Assembly: GCA_041158505.1 (NCBI GenBank)
Contig: JBEBBG010000015.1
Location: 12,642-76,641 of the forward strand
Length of the DNA stretch: 64,000 nucleotides
Reading direction: 5' to 3'
DNA from: Candidatus Parcubacteria bacterium
Lineage (GTDB): Bacteria > Patescibacteriota > Minisyncoccia > Phycocordibacterales > JAACPR01
The position numbers and the translations under genes are program-made. The notes beneath the pieces are model-generated. The model worked only from the letters and a program-made list of their open reading frames with translations, ran no database searches and was not told where the DNA came from. Of this stretch, positions 19,707 through 60,126 are shown one piece after another (position 1 is the stretch's first letter; each line of letters opens with the position of its first letter).

Positions 19707-20807
19707 CTACTTATTGAGCGGCATTACGAGGTACAAGAATGTTGGGTCGTTCACCCCACGAATAACAACTGGTTTGGTACGACCATTAAACATCAAAACA
19801 ATACTGTCTGAGTTAATAGAACCAAACGCATCGCTCACGTACTTGTGATTAAAACTAATCTCCACGGCCTCTCCGCGCAGTGTTGCATCGACAACATTTC
19901 TGTTCTCACCCTTGTCGACATTTTTCGACGTGAGCTCAAAAACACCGTCATCCGGTCGAATAGACACAGTGACCTGATTAAAGCTGTCTGAGAAGAGATT
20001 TGAGAGTTTTAGGGCCTGTACAAGATCCTGTTTGAGCACCGTAACCTCTGTCGTGTTGTCTTTTGGAATAATCTGCTGATAGTCAGGAAAGTTTCCGTCC
20101 ACAATCCTGGTCATAAGGTACACTCCGTCGTGAACAAATGCCACCTGACCACTCTCGAAACGAACCTCGATGTCTGCCTGTACATCATCAAAAACTCGAA
20201 TGATTTCAGCGACGTTTCGATGAGGAATAAGGACACTTTCGAACTGGTCAACCTCCCTCGCTTCAATTCGCTTCTCAGCAAGTCGAAACGAGTCCGTAGC
20301 AACAAACATCAGGTTTCCATCCTTTGGGTATAAGTACACACTCGAAAGCTCTGGTTTCATACTTGAAACCGAAGCACTGTACCAAACCGACTTGAGACCA
20401 TGGATGAGCATTGGGGCAGATATTTTGCAGGTATGCACATTCTCAAGTTGTGGGATTGTTGGAAAATCTTCGTGAGAAAGAGCTTTGATTGTTGTTTCGT
20501 TGTGGCTTGAGGTAATAGTGAGGTTTTGATTTTGAACCTCAAGCGTGATGGTTTCGTGATCAGAAACGTTTGACAGAAATTGAACAAAAAGACCACCAGG
20601 AACCGCAACGACTCCTTCCCGTTCTACCTTTACGGGTACAGACGCTTCAAGACCTAGATCAAGGTTTGTCGCCTTAATATGAAGCTTTGAACCTTTCGCC
20701 TCTAGTAGTACACATGCCAACACTGGCAACGTGGCGTTTTTGCTCGTGATACGATCCGCCTTACTTACCATCGACTGCACTTTTTCCTTCGAGCAAACAA
20801 TCTTCAT
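19707..20807 (-). CDS. dnaN: DNA polymerase III beta sliding clamp
   Basis: 366 aa; MKIVCSKEKV...LPVLACVLLEAKGSKLHIKATNLDLG is a beta-clamp N-terminus; three-domain length. Confidence 0.9.
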   Translation of the reverse strand: MKIVCSKEKVQSMVSKADRITSKNATLPVLACVLLEAKGSKLHIKATNLDLGLEASVPVKVEREGVVAVPGGLFVQFLSNVSDHETITLEVQNQNLTITSSHNETTIKALSHEDFPTIPQLENVHTCKISAPMLIHGLKSVWYSASVSSMKPELSSVYLYPKDGNLMFVATDSFRLAEKRIEAREVDQFESVLIPHRNVAEIIRVFDDVQADIEVRFESGQVAFVHDGVYLMTRIVDGNFPDYQQIIPKDNTTEVTVLKQDLVQALKLSNLFSDSFNQVTVSIRPDDGVFELTSKNVDKGENRNVVDATLRGEAVEISFNHKYVSDAFGSINSDSIVLMFNGRTKPVVIRGVNDPTFLYLVMPLNK

Positions 20808-21077
20808 ACCTGTTGATAATTAATCTTTTAAACCCAACTACTGTCTCTATTAGGACTGTGGATATGTGTATAACCTGCGGATAGTGTTATTTTACAAGCT
20901 TATTTTGTCCCCACCGAACTGCGTTTGTGTGGGGATAGTTTTGAACTTGTTTGGGATAACGAGCAGTATCCTCTAGCTTACCTACATTTATCCAGTTCTC
21001 AAGCAACCGATTTCCCCTAGTAATCCACAAATATCCCCAATACTTTGCCCTAAAATCAACAACTTATCCACATCTTA
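20808..21077. promoter_or_regulatory. DnaA-box cluster in the dnaA-dnaN spacer (oriC candidate / dnaN promoter region)
   Basis: Perfect TTATCCACA at 21064-21072; 1-mismatch boxes TGTGGATAT at 20857-20865 and TAATCCACA at 21021-21029; weaker boxes at 20876, 20951 and 20988. Confidence 0.55.
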
Positions 21078-22436
21078 TTAGAGCATTGCCCTAATCTGAT
21101 TAAGCTGCTGGTTGAGAAGCTGGTCGTTTTTGAGGTCGTTTTTCATCTTTTCACAAGAGTGAATAACGGTTGTGTGGTCCCTTCCCCCAAGCTTCTCTCC
21201 AATTGTTGGGTATGAGGTATTGAAATCCTCACGGAGGATGTACATGGTTATTTGTCGTGGTCGAACTACCTCCTTTCGGCGTGTTTTGTCGCAAATGTCG
21301 TCTGGGTTAATGTTGTAGAAGTCTGCAACGATTTTAATGAGGTCTTTAATTGAGACCATTTTCTTTGGTTTTGCACTGTTTTTAATGAGGTCTTTAACAT
21401 CATTAAGGTTTAGTTCACGGTTTTTAAGCTGGGATTGGCACGCGATAGAGTTAATAACGCCCTCAAGCTCACGGATGTTTCCTTCAATGCTCGTTGCTAG
21501 GTACTCAAGGATGTCGTTTGAAAGAACGATGTTATTTTGAGCCATTTTTGCATTTAAAATCGCGATACGAGACTCTGTGTCTGGTTTTGGAATGTCCACG
21601 ATCATACCCTGGTTGAAGCGTGACTTAAGCCTGTCTTCAAGGCCTGGAATGTATGACGGGTGCTTATCTGAAGAGAAAACAATCTGCTTGTTGTTGTCGT
21701 AGAGGGTGTTGAAAAGGTGGAAGAGCTCTTCTTGGGTTTTATCTTTATCTGAAAGAAACTGGATATCATCCATGATTAAAACGTCGTATTTTCGGTACTT
21801 TTCTTTAAATGCGAGCCCTTTGTTTTGTTGAATAGCGGCAATGTACTCAGAGGTAAATTTCTCTGAGGTTAGATAAAAAACCTTTTTTGATCGATCTTGC
21901 TCTTTGATTTTATTACCAATTGCTTGAATGAGGTGTGTTTTGCCGTGACCGGTGCTTCCGTATATGAAAAGTGGGTTGTATACGATTCCTGGCTGCTTAA
22001 TGATCGCCTGTGCGGCAGCGTGTGCAAGTTCGTTGAAAGAGCCAATAATAAAGGTTTCAAAGGTGTACCGAGGGTTGAGGTTGTCGTCCTTGTTGATGTA
22101 GTAGTCTGACAAAGGAAGCTCTCCCCCATCACGATTTTCTCGTTTGATTGGTTTTGGTTTCTGGTTGCGCGCCTTCTCGATGTTTGCAACAACAAATTCA
22201 ACAGCTCGAATGTCGTCGGTTTGATCGCGAAGTGTTTTAAGGATGGTTTTACCGTATTTGTTGAAAAGCCAGTCTTTTACAAAGGTGTTTGGAACACCAA
22301 CAATTGCTACACCATCATCAATTTTGACTACAAAAGTGTCTTTAAACCAGGTTGCAAAGTTTGCTTTAGATACAGTTACCTCAATAGATGCGAGTGCATT
22401 CTCCCAAAGTGTTTTGCTGTCTAAGGTAACTGACAT
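21078..22436 (-). CDS. dnaA: chromosomal replication initiator DnaA
   Basis: AAA+ GSTGHGKTHLIQAIGN and a C-terminal DnaA-box-binding domain; probable start MSVTLDSKTLWENAL (ATG at 22436). The track ORF extends to 22481. Confidence 0.9.
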   Translation of the reverse strand: MSVTLDSKTLWENALASIEVTVSKANFATWFKDTFVVKIDDGVAIVGVPNTFVKDWLFNKYGKTILKTLRDQTDDIRAVEFVVANIEKARNQKPKPIKRENRDGGELPLSDYYINKDDNLNPRYTFETFIIGSFNELAHAAAQAIIKQPGIVYNPLFIYGSTGHGKTHLIQAIGNKIKEQDRSKKVFYLTSEKFTSEYIAAIQQNKGLAFKEKYRKYDVLIMDDIQFLSDKDKTQEELFHLFNTLYDNNKQIVFSSDKHPSYIPGLEDRLKSRFNQGMIVDIPKPDTESRIAILNAKMAQNNIVLSNDILEYLATSIEGNIRELEGVINSIACQSQLKNRELNLNDVKDLIKNSAKPKKMVSIKDLIKIVADFYNINPDDICDKTRRKEVVRPRQITMYILREDFNTSYPTIGEKLGGRDHTTVIHSCEKMKNDLKNDQLLNQQLNQIRAML

Positions 22437-22549
22437 ACGTTGCAACGGTAAACGTGTGCCTATTATATACTCGAGCGCCAACTGGGAAACTTGTTAAAAA
22501 AACTAGTTTATGTTAAAACGATGTTCACGAGACGAAATAAGTAACGCAT

Positions 22550-53556: not shown

Positions 53557-55797
53557 TTATTTACCGAGCAGCTGGTTCATGAGCGACATGGTCTTTGGAC
53601 CAACCGCACCGACGTTTTCAAGTGCGTGCTCACGCTGGAATGCCTTCACTGCAGCGCGTGTAATGCTGCCGAAGTATCCGGTGATCTCTTCGTTAAAGAG
53701 TCCTGCTCGCTTGAGTGCTGCTTGTACACGTGACACGTCATCTCCTGCCGCACCCTGTGCAACGGTCTGCGTAATCTCACCTACTGGAACCGCGCTCGCG
53801 ATGGTGATTTTTTTTGTTTCAAATGCAGATTTATTAAATGCGATAGTGCTTGGGTATCCTGCTGCTCGGGCAATTTGTGTCGCATTCTTCACTTGAAGTG
53901 CCTCAAGCGTAATGCCATATTGTCCACCTTCACCTTGTCCTTCTGGATTAAGCTCTATCTGTACTGTGAACCGAACAGAGCCCCTTCCTGAATCAACCTT
54001 CCAATGCTCTGTTGGACTATGTTGTGCTGCTTGGACCTTGTTTACAGGTGTTCCGTCTGAATACGCTGCATCTACAATAAAACCGCTTTGTGTGCCCCAA
54101 AAAGCCCCATTCTTGCCATTAATGCTGTAGGAAATACCGTTTGCGGCAGATGTCCCGCCGTTCGGCAACACCTCACCAACACTATTTGGAATGTACAACG
54201 TTTCTGTTACATCAAGGTCAAACTCAATTGTGTAAACTCCTTTCTGATCATCGTTTCCCGTGGTTTCAATTTGAGTCGACATACTTACTGGTGTAATCAG
54301 TGCTAGGAGTGAATTCAAAAGCGGGTTAACTGTAAAGTAGTCAGAATGAGCACAAAGAGGTTTAAACGGAACTTCTGGGCTTGGTGTATTGTCATCACAC
54401 AATGTTATGCGGTACTGCCCTGCCTGTTGTGGTGCCAAAAGAGTTCCTCGCTCAGCCGCACGCTCAAAGGTTGACTGTCCAATGTTTCCATAATCAACCT
54501 TGATCCCTGTGGTAGATGGATACAAACTAGCAGTAATTTTATTCGGTACGTTAAGGCTTGTTCCCGTGAAGGTGAATGGGACATCACTTCCTGGTGTAAG
54601 CGTCGAACGGCCTCTGTATGTAACACTGAGAGCTTGAGCCTCGCGGCCTACAATGTTGACATTATCACTTCGATGGCCAAAAGGGCTTCGACAATAAAGA
54701 TGCGCAAGCGTGTACAAACCATCGTTTCGACCATCGATAGGCATTTGTGCGGTCACGGTTTTTGTCCCCGTAACCCCCACATTTTCTACTTCAATTTCAT
54801 TACCAGCATTATCATAAATGTATAACGTACAAGAAACGTCCGTTTCTCGCTGGCCTAGTGCAGATGCACTCCACATGAGCTCCACATTAGTCGCCTGACT
54901 AATTTTGTAGTTGTTTTCATCATCACCAGGTCGAAGGTTTACTTTGAATGTATCCTTTGAAAGGATTTCAAAGGGTTTATCACTTCGATCTGTCGCTCCT
55001 GTTTTTGTGTCTACAATTCTAATGTAGTAGCCACTTCCAGGTTCCGGCATTACTGCCTGGCCACCAACCTCAATGTCTCCGTACCATCGAATTGAACCTT
55101 TCTGTGACTCAATCACCTTGCCAATAGTTTGAAACGAACTACCACTTTTCTTTTCAAGGTACGCAACCATACCATCTCGGTGTGGCTCTGGTGTCCAGGT
55201 GATAATATTTTCACTACTAGACATCCATCGCTCACCACCATTTGGTGTAAGGAGCTTGAGTTTTGCTTGTGGGCCCGCGGGCGTGCTGGTTGGCGTTGTG
55301 CCATTACCACCGGTGCTGGTATTTCCTCCAGTGTTCGTTGTTGGCTCTGGCGCAGTAACCTTCGGCGCAACATATCGAAGTGTTGCTCGATCAGTCGCCT
55401 TTCGTCCGAGCTTGTCTGTTACCTGGTACACAAACCCAAGCACACATCCTTCTCGTGCCTTCGGAGCATCTCCAAGCTTGAAGTTTCCTGCAGCCGTTTT
55501 TCCCTGTCCCCATACTTGTCCATCCTTGATACCGCCACAGAGTGCTGGGTTGTTCACCTTAAGTGTGGTCTCAAAAGTTGCACCAGTTCCTGTACCTCGC
55601 CACACAATTGCAGGAACCGCTTCTCCTGTTGTTGCTGTGTGGTTCTGTTGTCCACCAATCGTGATTGATGCAGTTGGTGCCTTAACGACACCTGCACCAC
55701 CACGTTGTGCACTTGCTGCCGTTGGCGCAATTGTTGTGGTGATGAATGCTGTGAGGACGAGGAGGCTGATGAGTGAACGGGTGCTGATGGTTTGCAT
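53557..55797 (-). CDS. large secreted surface protein with C-terminal peptidoglycan-binding (PG_binding_1-like) domain
   Basis: ATG at 55797 gives MQTISTRSLISLLVLTAFITTTIAPTAASA signal peptide; Thr/Gly-rich linkers; C-terminal AGDDVSRVQAALKRAGLF...GYFGSITRAAVKAFQ. The track ORF is N-extended to 55938. Confidence 0.6.
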   Translation of the reverse strand: MQTISTRSLISLLVLTAFITTTIAPTAASAQRGGAGVVKAPTASITIGGQQNHTATTGEAVPAIVWRGTGTGATFETTLKVNNPALCGGIKDGQVWGQGKTAAGNFKLGDAPKAREGCVLGFVYQVTDKLGRKATDRATLRYVAPKVTAPEPTTNTGGNTSTGGNGTTPTSTPAGPQAKLKLLTPNGGERWMSSSENIITWTPEPHRDGMVAYLEKKSGSSFQTIGKVIESQKGSIRWYGDIEVGGQAVMPEPGSGYYIRIVDTKTGATDRSDKPFEILSKDTFKVNLRPGDDENNYKISQATNVELMWSASALGQRETDVSCTLYIYDNAGNEIEVENVGVTGTKTVTAQMPIDGRNDGLYTLAHLYCRSPFGHRSDNVNIVGREAQALSVTYRGRSTLTPGSDVPFTFTGTSLNVPNKITASLYPSTTGIKVDYGNIGQSTFERAAERGTLLAPQQAGQYRITLCDDNTPSPEVPFKPLCAHSDYFTVNPLLNSLLALITPVSMSTQIETTGNDDQKGVYTIEFDLDVTETLYIPNSVGEVLPNGGTSAANGISYSINGKNGAFWGTQSGFIVDAAYSDGTPVNKVQAAQHSPTEHWKVDSGRGSVRFTVQIELNPEGQGEGGQYGITLEALQVKNATQIARAAGYPSTIAFNKSAFETKKITIASAVPVGEITQTVAQGAAGDDVSRVQAALKRAGLFNEEITGYFGSITRAAVKAFQREHALENVGAVGPKTMSLMNQLLGK

Positions 55798-55848
55798 GGT
55801 AAACGGAATGTGCTTTAGGGTAATGCATTTAGTGTAACAGGATTTGTA

Positions 55849-55918
55849 AACGTAAAGGACATTCAGCAAACACAACTGTGGATAAAGGACAGTTATCCAC
55901 ATGGTATGTCCTTTACAC
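55849..55918. promoter_or_regulatory. nested palindrome carrying two perfect inverted DnaA boxes upstream of the surface-protein gene
   Basis: cGTAAAGGACAT...TGTGGATAA(55877-55885)aggacagTTATCCACA(55893-55901)tggtATGTCCTTTACac; a further GTAAAGGACA copy at about 56190. Confidence 0.55.
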
Positions 55919-56200
55919 ATTTTCAAACGAGCATACAATAGGATATGAGGTCGTTCTTCATAAGCACCTTCAAAAATTTTTCGTAAGTGTCTTTTGACTA
56001 CTTACCACCCTTGCATGTCCCGGACTTTTCCGGATTTACACGAAGCGTAGGTGTGGTTCCCAGGCAAAAAACACTTAAAACCGCCTGGATTACAATAAAA
56101 AACAAAAACTCCTCTCGTCTCAACGAGGCAAGCTTCTCCCCAAAGCACGCCTCACTAACTCAATCTGGGCGGTTCTTTCTTTAAAAAAGTAAAGGACAAG

Positions 56201-56230
56201 CAAAAAACCACGCAATTGCGTGGTTTTTTG
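56201..56230 (-). terminator. Rho-independent terminator downstream of cca
   Basis: caaaaaaccacgc-aatt-gcgtggttttttg. Confidence 0.7.
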
Positions 56231-56256
56231 CTTGTAGAACATCTCTCTGTCGTACG

Positions 56257-57729
56257 TTACTCTACGTGATGCTTCTTACGTAGCTGCTTTACTTCCTTTT
56301 CATCTTCGAGAGAAAGCTTTTCTTTCCCTTGTTTTCCAAGTCTTTCAAGATCTTCAAATGGTAGCTGGTTTAGCTCTAGTGCCCGTTTTTCAAGGTACTT
56401 CTCTGTATTTCGCTCTGGTTCTTCAAGGATTTCATCAAAAAGCGTGTACAGTATATGTCCAATCTTTGGTCCCTTATCAACTCCCATGTTCATAAGATCT
56501 GTCCCGTCGATTTTTAACATGGTCACAGAAAGCGGTGCCCGAAGCGCTTCTTCAATCATAGATTGATACTTTCTGAAGCGGTATGGCTCTTCTTTTGGTC
56601 GTCCCGTACCAATTCGGTCGCATTTCCTAAGGTTTACAAGGTCCCAGATATTATCTTCTCCCACTTTTGCAATGATGCGCCGGACAGCAGAAAGTGTGAT
56701 TTGCTCAGGATCAGCAAAAAACATGTGCCAACGCACAAGCGTGGTTACTTTTTGAATGGTTTCACGTGAAAAACGTAGATTTTCCAGAGTTTCACGTGTA
56801 ACTCGCGCACCCACCACTTCGTGGCCAAAGAAAGTTGCCTTTTTCCCTACCATTCTCTTTGTGTGAGGTTTTGCAACGTCATGAAACAGTACAGCAAGGC
56901 GTAGCTCTAAATCGTACCCCTTATCGGCGGCGTGCTGTAAAGCTCGTAGAGAATGTTCAAAAACATCGTATTTGTGAGCCTGTGTTTCTTGTGAAACACC
57001 GACCATACCCTCAAGAGCTTCAGAAACATGACGAAGCAGGCCAAGCCTTTGCATCATTACAAGTCCGAGCATTGGGTTATCAGACATAATAAGCTTTACA
57101 AACTCCTCCCTAATCCTTTCACGTGAAACGTTCCCCAGTAGGTCCCCCATTTCTTCAATCGCCTTTGCGGTATCTGATTCAATAAAGAAACCAAGCTCAG
57201 CGCTAAATCGAACGGCGCGCATAATTCGAAGGGCATCTTCTTCAAAGCGTTCCTGTGGATTTCCTACAGTACGTAGTTTTTTGGCCACCAAATCATCCTG
57301 TCCTTTATAAGGATCAACAATCTGTCCTTTAGAAAGTGCGATGGCATTTACTGTAAAATCACGTCGAGACAGATCGTCCCCTATCTTTTTGCTAAAGGTC
57401 ACCGAGTCCGGATGACGATTATCTGAGTACTTTGATTCAAGCCGGTATGGGGTAACCTCTACAATCTTCATTCGTTCATCATCGCTGCGCGTCTTTACCC
57501 CCACTGTTCCGAAGGTGTTTTCGTAGAAAGAATCAGGAAAAATCTCCTGGATTTCTTCAGGGGTAGCATTTGTTGTGGCGTCCCAATCTTTTGGTTCTCG
57601 GCCCAAAATCAGGTCCCGGACACAGCCTCCTACGAGGTACGCCTCGAAACCAGCGGCCTCAAGCCCCTCAAGCACTTCCCCAACTGGCTTTGGTATGTCA
57701 TACTTGCCTTGCTTCATACGTACCGCCAT
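56257..57729 (-). CDS. cca: CCA-adding tRNA nucleotidyltransferase with HD domain
   Basis: GGCVRDLILGREPKDWD head-domain motif; HD motif (LFHDVAKP); 490 aa. Confidence 0.85.
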   Translation of the reverse strand: MAVRMKQGKYDIPKPVGEVLEGLEAAGFEAYLVGGCVRDLILGREPKDWDATTNATPEEIQEIFPDSFYENTFGTVGVKTRSDDERMKIVEVTPYRLESKYSDNRHPDSVTFSKKIGDDLSRRDFTVNAIALSKGQIVDPYKGQDDLVAKKLRTVGNPQERFEEDALRIMRAVRFSAELGFFIESDTAKAIEEMGDLLGNVSRERIREEFVKLIMSDNPMLGLVMMQRLGLLRHVSEALEGMVGVSQETQAHKYDVFEHSLRALQHAADKGYDLELRLAVLFHDVAKPHTKRMVGKKATFFGHEVVGARVTRETLENLRFSRETIQKVTTLVRWHMFFADPEQITLSAVRRIIAKVGEDNIWDLVNLRKCDRIGTGRPKEEPYRFRKYQSMIEEALRAPLSVTMLKIDGTDLMNMGVDKGPKIGHILYTLFDEILEEPERNTEKYLEKRALELNQLPFEDLERLGKQGKEKLSLEDEKEVKQLRKKHHVE

Positions 57730-58384: not shown

Positions 58385-58447
58385 TAATCCCCATATTTTT
58401 CAATAAAATTGTGGAAAACTGTGGATAACTCTGGGGATATGTGTATA
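58385..58447. promoter_or_regulatory. dense DnaA-box cluster followed by an AT-rich tract (alternative oriC or DnaA-titration site)
   Basis: Perfect TGTGGATAA at 58421-58429; 1-mismatch boxes TGTGGAAAA (58410-58418) and TGTGTATAA (58439-58447); weaker boxes at 58386 and 58432; then about 200 bp that looks AT-rich by eye. Confidence 0.5.
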
Positions 58448-58563
58448 AAAGACAGCATTTTTAGACAGTTTTCAAGGCCACTTTTCCTTTAAAAATGGCT
58501 TTGTTGAGCTCTATTTTACTTTTTTAAGACATTGTTTTACAAAATAGCCTTATTTTAGTATAT

Positions 58564-58658
58564 GTTTCACGTGAAACACTACTTGTTTTCATAAAATAAG
58601 CACTTTTTCTTTAATAAAGTTTCATGTGTAACGGTATATGATCGTTTCACTTGAAAAC
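58564..58658. promoter_or_regulatory. three tandem GTTTCACGTGAAAC-type palindromic operator-like sites upstream of the yraN-like gene
   Basis: Perfect 14-bp palindrome gtttcacgtgaaac at 58564-58577; variants gtttcatgtgtaac (58619-58632) and gtttcacttgaaaac (58643-58657). Confidence 0.5.
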
Positions 58659-59040: not shown

Positions 59041-59173
59041 ACGATGGGGAATTCTAGTGCTACTATGACGCTACACCACAAGGTTATATATAGTCATTTT
59101 TCTCTATATACGTGCTGTGTCGGTGTACCCATATTCACCCGTGTGCCGTTTACACGGGGTGTAAAGAATGAAA

Positions 59174-59246
59174 CGGGGCGTGGTGTAACGGCTAACATGC
59201 TCGGTTTGGGACCGAGTGACTCCGGGTTCGAATCCCGGCGCCCCGA
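59174..59246 (+). tRNA. tRNA-Pro (anticodon TGG)
   Basis: Acceptor cggggcg/cgccccg, anticodon loop uuUGGga, T-arm ccgggttcgaatcccgg. Confidence 0.8.
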
Positions 59247-59253
59247 CTACAAT

Positions 59254-60126
59254 ATGAAACTGGTAACGCATGAAGGAAGCTTCCATCTTGACGACCTCTT
59301 TGCTGTTGCGACTATTACGCTCCTCTATCCAGATATTGAGATTGTACGGACAAGAGACGCAAGCAAGTTTGGGGACGCTGATTTTGTTGTAGATGTTGGG
59401 GATATTTGTGATCCTGCGACAAACCGATTTGATCATCACCAGCATGGTGGGGCAGGAGTTCGTGAGAACGGTGTGCCATACGCGAGTTTTGGTCTGGTCT
59501 GGAAAAAGTACGGCAAAATGGTGTCTGGGGAAGAGCGAATCGCTGATTTGGTAGATAAAAAGATGGTGCAGCCGATTGATGCAGCTGATAACGGCTTCAA
59601 TATGTACCGGGAAACAAAACCTGGCCTTTCACCTTACTTGCTCGACAACGCATTCAAGGCGCTGACGCCAACGTGGCGAGATCCAGAGACGGTTGATGAT
59701 ACGTTTGCCAATTTGCTTCCACTGGCACAAGAGATTTTGCGTCGAGAGATTAAGAAGGCCCAGTATTTCTTTGAGGACACGGAAATTGTGAAGGAGGCGT
59801 ACCGTGTTGCTGAGGATAAGCGAATTATTGTCCTTGAGCATCCAATGGCGTGGAAATCGGTGATTTCGAGGAAGCGTGAGCCAGTATATGTGATTCATCC
59901 AAATCAGATGACTGGGGAGTGGATTGTGGCATGTGTACGAAAGTCTCCACAGTCACACGAAAACCGAAAGCTGCTACCAAAGGCGTGGGCAGGGAAGCGT
60001 GGTAAGGAGTTAGAGCAAGCAACTGGTGTGCAGGGCGCTGAAGCTTGCCACAATAAGCGCTTCATTGCGACAGCCTGGACACGTGAGGCCGCGATTAAGC
60101 TGGCACAGTTGGCGCTGCAGGCGTAA
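59254..60126 (+). CDS. MYG1/UPF0160-family metal-dependent hydrolase (paralog 1, canonical)
   Basis: ATG at 59254; LVTHEGSFHLDDLFAVATITLLYPDIEIVRTRD...VVDVGDICDPATNRFDHHQHG reproduces the MYG1 N-terminal metal-site motifs. The track ORF 59044..60126 reads through tRNA-Pro and is N-extended. Confidence 0.75.
   Translation: MKLVTHEGSFHLDDLFAVATITLLYPDIEIVRTRDASKFGDADFVVDVGDICDPATNRFDHHQHGGAGVRENGVPYASFGLVWKKYGKMVSGEERIADLVDKKMVQPIDAADNGFNMYRETKPGLSPYLLDNAFKALTPTWRDPETVDDTFANLLPLAQEILRREIKKAQYFFEDTEIVKEAYRVAEDKRIIVLEHPMAWKSVISRKREPVYVIHPNQMTGEWIVACVRKSPQSHENRKLLPKAWAGKRGKELEQATGVQGAEACHNKRFIATAWTREAAIKLAQLALQA

Follow-up and report, generated by a model that had tools for sequence, protein, structure and literature searches.

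The window analysed in this work (the whole stretch of DNA, 64,000 nucleotides) belongs to a genome of the Paceibacteria (Patescibacteria, or candidate phyla radiation, CPR), and the closest relatives of its CCA-adding enzyme are found in metagenome-assembled genomes labelled Paceibacteria, Kaiserbacteria and similar. Our subject is a nested palindrome with two inverted DnaA boxes, flanked by a surface-protein gene (53557-55797, minus strand) and by the gene of the CCA-adding enzyme (56257-57729, minus strand, hereafter the CCA gene). Its elements were found by reading the sequence and with a repeat finder, and are listed here with the features on both sides.

53557-55797, minus strand: surface-protein gene, encoding a secreted protein (746 aa) that has a peptidoglycan-binding domain at its C-terminus
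55839-55831, minus strand: predicted extended -10 TGTTACACT of the surface-gene promoter, with a predicted start near 55824
55852-55862: left outer arm GTAAAGGACAT, which is ATGTCCTTTAC on the minus strand
55877-55885, minus strand: left DnaA box TGTGGATAA (= TTATCCACA), a perfect match
55883-55891, plus strand: central copy of TAAAGGACA, the distal inverted motif of the conserved unit described below
55893-55901, plus strand: right DnaA box TTATCCACA, perfect, a 9-bp inner arm 100% complementary to the left box
55906-55916: right outer arm ATGTCCTTTAC, 11 bp, 100% complementary to GTAAAGGACAT
55906-55917, plus strand: the right outer arm taken as a copy of the TGTCCTTTA motif, ATGTCCTTTACA, which contains a -35 TTTACA (55912-55917)
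55934-55939, plus strand: -10 TACAAT of the RNA promoter, with a predicted start near 55946
55940-56186, plus strand: unannotated structured RNA of ~240 nt, possibly ~290 nt if it ends at the next terminator
56189-56198, plus strand: extra copy of GTAAAGGACA at the 3′ end of the RNA gene, in a position that is not conserved
56196-56235, both strands: bidirectional intrinsic terminator with an 18-pair stem and T runs on each side, serving the RNA (plus strand) and the CCA gene (minus strand)

The two inner boxes are 7 nt apart, separated by the spacer aggacag, and the palindrome lies 55-119 bp upstream of the surface-gene ATG at 55797, a start that is backed by the NCBI annotation and by three orthologues. 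An earlier note on this DNA had described the nested palindrome with its inverted perfect boxes, its placement upstream of this ATG and a further copy of the motif near 56190, and all of these were found again. The inner and outer palindromes are not concentric, with a left spacer of 14 nt and a right one of 4 nt. Their 'loop' is filled by the central TAAAGGACA copy, which overlaps the left DnaA box and, on the minus strand, reads TGTCCTTTA fused to that box (TGTCCTTTATCCACA). The presence of this third copy in the loop means that the outer arms are copies of a separate 9-mer motif, and more than the arms of a palindrome. Both words are in excess in the window. Perfect TTATCCACA occurs 4 times against 0.36 expected, with none of 100 shuffles reaching 4, and the four copies are all intergenic and form three clusters. 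For TAAAGGACA the count is 6 against 0.43 expected (0 of 100 shuffles reached 6); apart from this locus, the word is found only within the CCA gene, where it forms KGQ codons. Perfect hairpins of comparable size are frequent in the window, but these are G+C-rich terminators, while this palindrome is AT-rich and lacks a proper T tract.

The locus was compared with 80 species-level genome loci around the CCA gene (individual loci are cited by L numbers). In these ~0.8 Mb of relatives, 332 perfect copies of TAAAGGACA/TGTCCTTTA were counted against ~6 expected, and they cluster between the CCA gene and xth (exonuclease III family). There they form part of a recurrent unit, (TAAAGGACA)-n-TTATnCACA-gap-TGTCCTTTAC(A)-16/17 nt-TAnnnT, on the strand that matches the plus strand of the window; the arrangement TAAAGGACA-n-TTATCCACA occurs in many relatives. 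By a strict count the unit was found in 63 of the 80, with a single orientation of the box across all 63 loci. In the window, the right half of the palindrome reads TAAAGGACA-g-TTATCCACA-tggta-TGTCCTTTACA-16 nt-TACAAT, where TGTCCTTTACA contains the -35 TTTACA.

The geometry of the unit is tightly kept. Its -35 is supplied by the last bases of the motif, and is TTTACA in 49 and TTTACG in 9 of the 63 loci; the -35/-10 spacer measures 16-17 nt in 59, and the -10 conforms to TAnnnT in all of them. A -35/-10 pair of sigma-70 type is therefore conserved, with TTTAC(A/G) in 58/63. Of the gaps between box and motif, 49 measure 3-5 bp, 13 measure 13-14 bp and one measures 23 bp, classes that differ by 10-bp steps, or one helical turn. 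The longer gaps are usually occupied by a second, degenerate tandem box, and tandem boxes upstream of the motif show the same 10-bp period in the relatives. Such helical phasing of the box relative to the -35 suggests a protein seated on a defined face of the DNA. The spacer holds an extra motif copy, which runs in direct orientation (TGTCCTTTAcaTGTCCTTTA) or is inverted and then adjoins the -10 (TAAAGGACA-TAnnAT). When 45 of these promoters were aligned, TTAT.CACA was near-invariant, and its weakest position was the fifth, which matches the classical TTATNCACA profile. In a metagenome scan for the direct motif pair, 36 of the 124 matches listed had a DnaA box (at most 1 mismatch) immediately upstream of the pair, and the identifiable neighbours of these box-bearing matches were always, among the matches listed, xth and/or the CCA gene.

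In most relatives there is no surface gene at this place and the unit abuts the 3′ end of xth, so that no gene is there to be served in that direction. On the other side, it points into a 240-800-nt non-coding stretch ending at the 3′ end of the CCA gene. On the plus strand of the window, 55912-55939 reads TTTACA-16-TACAAT and agrees with 10 of 12 consensus positions in a simple promoter scan; TACAAT or TATAAT is present at the same position in L003, L004, L006, L083, L085 and L087. The right box would lie at about -53 to -45 relative to the predicted RNA start. Judged by this arrangement, the right half in the window (55883-55939) is a typical member of the conserved unit, and the ancestral one.

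The same comparison bears on whether the palindrome could work as a hairpin in RNA, as a minus-strand terminator or attenuator, or be a piece of a dispersed repeat (repetitive extragenic palindrome or miniature inverted-repeat transposable element). A simple scan does list TGTGGATAACTGTCCTTTATCCACA followed by GTTGTGTTTG as terminator-like, but only 3 of the 9 pairs in the stem are G-C, the T tract is poor, and the upstream CCA gene already has a strong terminator at 56196-56235. Moreover, no such hairpin exists in L085, L087 or any of the 80 other genomes, while the sites themselves are retained. As to a dispersed repeat, TAAAGGACA is indeed a repeated motif, but in the 64 kb it is confined to the locus and two coding positions of the CCA gene, and it is absent upstream of 97 tRNA-Gly and 75 tRNA-Arg genes. 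No second copy of the palindrome exists in the window, which speaks against the common dispersed repeat that the earlier note had kept in mind. Readings of this kind are extremely improbable.

An RNA gene lies downstream of the right half. An alignment of seven sequences, from the window, from three loci with the surface gene (L083, L085, L087) and from three without it (L003, L004, L006), contains the conserved blocks CCCUU(G/A)(C/A)AUG, GUAGG, (C/U)CCUCUCGUC and AACUCAAUC, and its indels are not multiples of three. The consensus structure of these seven comprises 27 pairs, 10 of them compensatory. Read on the plus strand, the paired columns hold 21 G·U cells against 2 A·C cells (the latter would be wobbles if the other strand were transcribed), which places the RNA on the plus strand, in agreement with the promoter prediction. 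For the same two reasons a minus-strand likeness to the CR-I motif of RNase P (GGAAAAGUCCGGG) was dropped. At its 3′ end the RNA has a long-range helix and then a U-rich tail; one of its loops, pyrimidine-rich and invariant (GACUCCUCUCGUC), resembles an anti-Shine-Dalgarno sequence. A covariance model built from the seven sequences matches 55940-56186 in the window and also finds three more distant copies (L005, L011, L114), all of them placed exactly downstream of the local promoter unit. In the resulting alignment of 10 sequences, 96% of the cells are paired and 16/27 pairs have changed on both sides, counts that are inflated since this alignment was fitted to the model; none of 500 shuffles reached the observed values, and slid controls gave 33-43% pairing.

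The whole unit, with promoter, RNA and terminator, is inverted in 11 of the 63 loci and still lies between the CCA gene and xth. Inversion as a whole with the place kept points to an autonomous gene and not to a leader sequence. No Rfam 15 match besides tRNAs was obtained in gathering-threshold scans of the window and 25 related loci, and permissive scans of the RNA region in the window and L080 gave noise or terminator-like matches only, so that the RNA cannot be recognised as RNase P, 6S, SRP, tmRNA or a member of another known family. As for the GTAAAGGACA copy at 56189-56198, it is degenerate or absent in L083, L085 and L087, and L003 and L004 have an internal copy elsewhere in the RNA.

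Some transcripts carry the motif in RNA form. In several clades (L121, L147, L196, L200 and others) the RNA starts with a hairpin in the first ~30 nt after the -10, the stem of which, AAAGGAC/GUUCUUU, corresponds to the DNA motif in RNA form and includes a single G·U pair. Words resembling GUUCUUUC also recur within transcripts, for example GGUUCUUUCUUU at 56173-56184 in the window. These are hints of operator mimicry, or of shared recognition between RNA hairpins and DNA motif; that the 5′ hairpins of these clades would be a decoy for the operator-binding protein is speculative.

We now turn to the left half and the surface gene. Its product gives a PG_binding_1 match (E = 1.5e-13) and is named 'hypothetical protein RL150_614 [Candidatus Parcubacteria bacterium]' (746 aa) in NCBI. 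A 781-aa gene model starting at an ATG inside the palindrome, at 55902 (JGI call; L001 8472, L002 11828), was rejected on the basis of the orthologues, the NCBI annotation and the position of the signal peptide, which is found at the position of ATG 55797 in all three orthologues. The start of the surface gene is thereby corrected relative to the JGI call, which was probably caused by the AAGGA of the motif resembling a ribosome-binding site. A surface gene between the RNA gene and xth is present only in the small clade of the window; it is newly acquired, having been inserted there in this clade. CCA protein identity to the window is 81% for L083 and 90% for L085/L087, and these identities give the tree ((window, L085/L087), L083), with L003, L004 and L006 outside. 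All four surface-gene loci keep TAAAGGACA-N5-TGTGGATAA-N1-TGTCCTTTA.

In the window, L085 and L087, TGnTACACT precedes the ATG by 33 nt, and in L083 TATAGT precedes it by 34 nt; from this conservation and from its fit to the consensus, we infer that TGnTACACT is the extended -10 of the surface promoter. In L085/L087, the motif copy 16 nt upstream of this -10 is the ancestral distal copy of the RNA unit, on the other strand, which suggests that the new gene co-opted an existing site. Compared with L085/L087, the window and L083 contain ~30 extra bp (ATCCACAG...AATGTC(C/T)TTT) that add a second DnaA box, fused with the central motif (TGTCCTTTATCCACA), and a new motif copy. The latter lies 16 nt from the -10 in the window; in L083 it is degenerate (TGTCTTTTA) and lies 7 nt from the -10. 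This outer motif copy is absent in L085 and L087, and the left, surface-side box is conserved only in L083. A perfect inverted box pair is thus restricted to the window (with its duplicates L001/L002) and L083/L084, and is found neither in L085 and L087 nor in the 80 genome loci.

On the minus strand, the left half (55885-55831) reads TTATCCACA-15 bp-TGTCCTTTAcg...TGTTACACT, which is the 'long gap' geometry of the unit. The left box faces the surface-protein gene and would occupy about -61 to -53 relative to the predicted minus-strand start. This 15-bp gap, mirrored against the 5-bp gap of the right half, explains why the palindrome is nested but not concentric. As the window and L083 have both the second box and the outer copy, and L085/L087 have neither, parsimony suggests that the two were probably present in the ancestor of the clade and later deleted in L085/L087. 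A second box kept across ~19% CCA protein divergence, yet lost in L085/L087, would be useful without being essential.

These observations permit to weigh the function proposed in the earlier note, according to which the palindrome as a whole serves the surface gene alone, as a DnaA-controlled promoter or operator that couples its expression to replication status. It is true that the left box and its motif copy are turned towards the surface gene and lie upstream of a conserved extended -10, that the box pair has been kept in the window and L083 despite 41% identity of the surface proteins, and that the DnaA of the organism is canonical. What speaks against a dedicated promoter is that 63/80 genomes keep the right-hand box and arm and the central motif without having a surface gene here, and that L085/L087 possess the surface gene but neither the second box nor the outer arm. 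The proposal fails on the first of these points, the conservation of the right half where the surface gene does not exist, and we regard it as rather improbable. Part of it stands. The idea of a DnaA-controlled promoter gains from the fixed and phased distance of the box to the -35/-10 pair in 63/80 relatives, from the TTATNCACA profile and from the canonical DnaA. The surface gene holds as a target for the left box and arm, and does not for the right box, the ancestral target of which would be the plus-strand RNA. Likewise, the expected conservation upstream of surface-gene orthologues was found for the second box in L083 and is missing in L085 and L087.

The candidate reader of the boxes is encoded in the window, next to the gene of the sliding clamp, as follows.

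21078-22481, minus strand: dnaA, TIGR00362 match, E = 1.6e-152
19707-20807, minus strand: dnaN

Domain IV of this DnaA was aligned to 1J1V and 8BTG, two solved structures of DnaA bound to DNA, and RPRQ and GGRDHTTVIH are intact; these we take to be the residues that contact bases in 1J1V. The box variants tolerated in the unit, TTATCCCCA, TTATACACA and TTATGCACA, are those present in the origin region between dnaA and dnaN. The sequence traits of a DnaA promoter are thus assembled at the locus: consensus boxes at a promoter, a box conserved with constrained geometry, and a DnaA with an intact domain IV. The consensus and its variants, the phasing, domain IV and the precedents given below lead us to think that DnaA is likely to bind the boxes of the palindrome.

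Could the TTATCCACA sites be read instead by a factor other than DnaA, or by a two-headed factor on TAAAGGACA-n-TTATCCACA-nnnn-TGTCCTTTA, the likeness to the box being a coincidence? The box is nearly always accompanied by TGTCCTTTA, at the RNA promoter as well as where the box array next to tRNA-Gly begins (TGTCCTTTATCCACA), and TGTCCTTTA is more perfectly conserved than a typical accessory site. Nevertheless, the sites are exact DnaA consensus, their variants TTATCCCCA, TTATACACA and TTATGCACA match the origin region, conservation dips at position 5 as it does for DnaA, tandem boxes upstream of the motif follow a 10-bp period, and domain IV of DnaA is intact. A coincidental likeness therefore appears unlikely.

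The TGTCCTTTA motif itself is presumably read by a separate sequence-specific protein, because it is too perfectly conserved and too unlike the box, of which it matches at most 5/9 positions. For the same reason it is unlikely to be a degenerate, low-affinity DnaA site. Direct and inverted arrangements both occur, so that the site is apparently monomeric. No candidate for the binding protein was found among the neighbours, and Pfam was uninformative for the conserved unknown open reading frames among them. Two simpler roles of the motif were rejected. As a general promoter element of stable RNAs it would be expected more widely, and it is found upstream of only 6/55 tRNA-Pro, 0/97 tRNA-Gly and 0/75 tRNA-Arg genes. 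As a plain -35 everywhere it would have a partner, and a logo over the 332 copies has no fixed downstream -10; only the copy adjacent to a DnaA box has one.

The motif is also found outside the unit. A minority of relatives have box-less TGTCCTTTA clusters between yraN and tRNA-Pro, either upstream of tRNA-Pro (L037, L040, L042, L046) or next to yraN (L088, L102, L125, L150, L155, L181); the window has no such cluster. These may be a second operator of the same TGTCCTTTA-reading factor. In addition, unrelated metagenome contigs, some of them from human gut, contain conserved TGTCCTTTA-tt/ct-TGTCCTTTA repeat families with no DnaA box, CCA gene or xth nearby. They look like a separate phenomenon that involves the same 9-mer, and fall into three groups.

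L095, L126, L174, L198
L108, L129, L164, L199
L100, L101, L110, L127, L142, L153

Taken together, we think it probable that the nested palindrome is a bidirectional promoter/operator, composed of two back-to-back copies of the conserved unit, the right one for the RNA and the left one for the surface gene, with DnaA as its likely regulator. The ancestral right unit would drive the structured RNA of ~240 nt, which would end at the long hairpin and the bidirectional terminator. The left, mirrored copy, specific to the clade, would front the extended -10 of the acquired peptidoglycan-binding protein. DnaA, sitting on both boxes, would modulate both promoters by its level or its nucleotide state, and the RNA, and secondarily the surface protein, would in this way be tied to the status of replication initiation. 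The reader of TGTCCTTTA would most likely be a repressor, a role favoured by the overlap of the motif copies with the -35, the spacer and the edge of the -10, and DnaA at about -49 would then act as activator or anti-repressor, the sign being guessed.

Several points weigh against this bidirectional promoter, besides the inflated pairing counts mentioned above. On the surface side, the minus-strand promoter lacks a good -35 at canonical spacing and has an extended -10 only, and its motif lies 16 nt from the -10, where the RNA promoter has 18-19 nt. Since the surface gene is presumably expressed in L085 and L087, which lack the second box, the left box would be inessential. With regard to DnaA, the boxes are inverted with a 7-bp gap, unlike the pairs 2-3 bp apart preferred in E. 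coli (PMC11317965), and one factor could conceivably read the whole composite site, the box included. As for the RNA, a sequence-only nhmmer profile did not reach beyond the seven close RNAs, homology could be shown only down to ~62-67% CCA protein identity, and class-wide conservation could be demonstrated for the promoter unit only. A circuit common to all Paceibacteria, in which DnaA and a TGTCCTTTA-binding protein would gate an RNA that relays replication or cell-cycle status to translation or other targets, and to which the clade would have added a mirrored unit for its surface protein, is possible but somewhat doubtful. Should it be true that a DnaA-gated RNA is a general regulatory circuit of reduced genomes, the interest of the locus would be higher.

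The position of the palindrome in the chromosome matters for two further explanations. The intergenic region between dnaA and dnaN (20808-21077) is rich in box variants (TGTGGATAT, TGTGTATAA, TGCGGATAG, TAATCCACA, TTATCCACA and others), coincides with the minimum of the cumulative GC skew (~21 kb), and is the likely oriC. The palindrome is ~35 kb from it. With two perfect, high-affinity boxes at that distance from the origin, and box clusters known near the origins of Bacillus (PMC2533591), the palindrome could be a DnaA-titrating element of the datA or box-cluster kind, and/or a cruciform, without a direct promoter role. Folded as single-stranded DNA, the region reaches -16.2 kcal/mol, with a z-score of -4.95. 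However, 55877-55901 holds two boxes only, short of a dense cluster (~4 or more), and a four-box array at 58410-58448 fits titration better. The stems of 9 and 11 bp are AT-rich, the internal loops are 14 and 4 nt, the palindromes are not concentric, and relatives lose the palindrome while keeping each site and the -35/-10 geometry. In fact the relatives switch the motif between direct and inverted orientation, which indicates that protein sites are preserved and not a hairpin. Titration and cruciform extrusion, both suggested in the earlier note, are accordingly abandoned on the box number for the first, and on the AT-rich stems, asymmetric spacers and rearranged motifs for the second; we hold an element of this type to be very unlikely.

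The array in question, between tRNA-Gly and yraN (58400-58455), consists of about four DnaA boxes head to tail (58410-58448). It reads TGTGGAAAA-c-TGTGGATAA-c-tcTGGGGATA-TGTGTATAA, followed by AAGACA, and is kept in many relatives as TGTC(C/T)TTTAT(A/C)CACA-TATCCCCA-nnG-TTATCCACA-GTTTTCCACA. It opens with the same fusion of TGTCCTTTA and box (TGTCCTTTATCCACA) as the left half of the palindrome, and is a better candidate than the latter for a titrating site or one that organises the origin domain. A perfect parS, TGTTTCACGTGAAACA, follows directly in an AT-rich stretch (58563-58578), with two degenerate parS-like sites at 58618-58633 and 58643-58658. In several relatives, half sites of the GTTTCACG type also occur close to the 3′ end of the CCA gene.

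The second explanation takes the TGTCCTTTA copies as iteron-like, in a secondary replication or partition element where the transcript would help to activate an origin and would not function as an RNA of its own. DnaA boxes do have direct repeats of 11-12-bp period beside them, the locus is in the origin-proximal domain, a perfect parS and a DnaA-box array are 2.5 kb away, and gene orientation switches near 58 kb. But the flanking genes encode the CCA-adding enzyme, an exonuclease of the xth family and the surface protein, with no adjacent rep gene, and the GC-skew minimum is at dnaA-dnaN, ~21 kb. The repeats, too, are placed precisely over a -35/-10 pair, and downstream of them there is covariation of the RNA type with strand-specific wobbles. 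This makes an iteron-like element very improbable, and the bidirectional promoter remains our preferred reading. Concerning the orientation switch, long open reading frames from ~21 to 57 kb are nearly all on the minus strand, and after ~58.6 kb on the plus strand. The switch, at the DnaA-box/parS region (~58.4 kb), and the GC-skew minimum (~21 kb) are the two usual origin indicators and disagree here. An alternative origin near 58 kb, as the switch, the box array and parS might suggest, was rejected given that the GC-skew minimum is instead at dnaA-dnaN.

There are precedents for the role we propose. DnaA acts as a transcription factor at dnaA and nrdAB in E. coli, at sda, ywlC and yydA in B. 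subtilis, and at gidAB-parAB in P. aeruginosa (PMC11317965, PMC2533591, PMC13438810). As in those promoters, consensus 9-mers lie here just upstream of, or over, a sigma-70-type promoter, usually with more than one box, are conserved in related species, and belong to the origin-proximal part of the chromosome. By contrast, the conserved target is a non-coding RNA, the host is a member of the CPR, and the system is known from sequence alone; the boxes are always joined to a conserved 9-mer, TGTCCTTTA, that supplies the -35; and in the window they are inverted, with a 7-bp gap and divergent promoters, and are not pairs separated by 2-3 bp.

Other known systems are more distant. In E. coli, datA is a DnaA-titration locus. 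Like such box clusters (PMC2533591, PMC12371093), the palindrome has perfect boxes near oriC and outside it, but they are only two and are set in promoter geometry. The Caulobacter non-coding RNA CcnA resembles ours in that its promoter has a site for a master regulator of replication or the cell cycle; that regulator is CtrA and not DnaA, and no sequence or structural similarity is apparent (PMC8959179).

Two families of repeats deserve comparison. In Pho-box-type sites, winged-helix response regulators bind direct repeats of 11-bp period that take the place of the -35 or overlap it. The TGTCCTTTAcaTGTCCTTTA of many relatives is similarly made of two direct repeats of 11-12-bp period, lying over the -35 and the spacer and stopping ~7 bp short of the -10; other relatives, however, have the second copy inverted and abutting the -10, plus an inverted copy upstream of the DnaA box, and the motif is unlike known pho boxes. 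Iteron-type plasmid origins and rep promoters combine a DnaA box, direct repeats and an inverted repeat over the promoter. Our locus shares with them a DnaA box beside short phased repeats, direct and inverted, at a promoter, but is chromosomal, with class-wide synteny, has no rep gene, yields a structured RNA, and has repeats of 9-11 bp against 17-22 bp. TIGR arrays were also considered and discarded, there being no periodic array and no Tas gene.

No report of the motif in a bacterial regulatory context, nor of a promoter or RNA motif of such kind in Patescibacteria, was found in the literature searched. Likewise, the obligatory pairing of the box with TGTCCTTTA, its class-wide conservation in the CPR, the RNA target and the mirrored version were not found described there. 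CPR bacteria are not culturable alone and encode few regulators, and to our knowledge almost nothing is known about their transcriptional regulation. Here a promoter unit with an exact geometry is kept across ~60 species-level genomes and dozens of metagenome contigs. It joins the predicted binding site of the universal initiator with a new 9-mer, and would control a previously unrecognised RNA family. Its parts can be tested: a DnaA target outside oriC, an operator with which to find its binding protein, and an RNA to be sought in metatranscriptomes. The left half would be an example of an acquired gene wired into an existing circuit by mirroring a control unit of 30 bp. A caution also follows, as 'palindromes' in promoter regions may be two divergent promoters and not one symmetric site.

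Two observations on neighbouring genes complete the description. The two perfect TAAAGGACA copies inside the CCA gene (57299-57307 and 57323-57331, minus strand) are 24 bp apart and encode (S/Y)-K-G-Q, as TCT AAA GGA CAG and TAT AAA GGA CAG. At least 17 relatives, with CCA proteins only 57-77% identical, have both copies unchanged in DNA at the corresponding places; the copies could reflect codon bias on a conserved peptide, or be internal binding sites. Finally, tRNA-Pro (59174-59247) falls inside a mechanically called open reading frame (59044-60126), so that the MYG1-family gene must start after the tRNA; the JGI call of this gene, of 290 aa, does start beyond tRNA-Pro.

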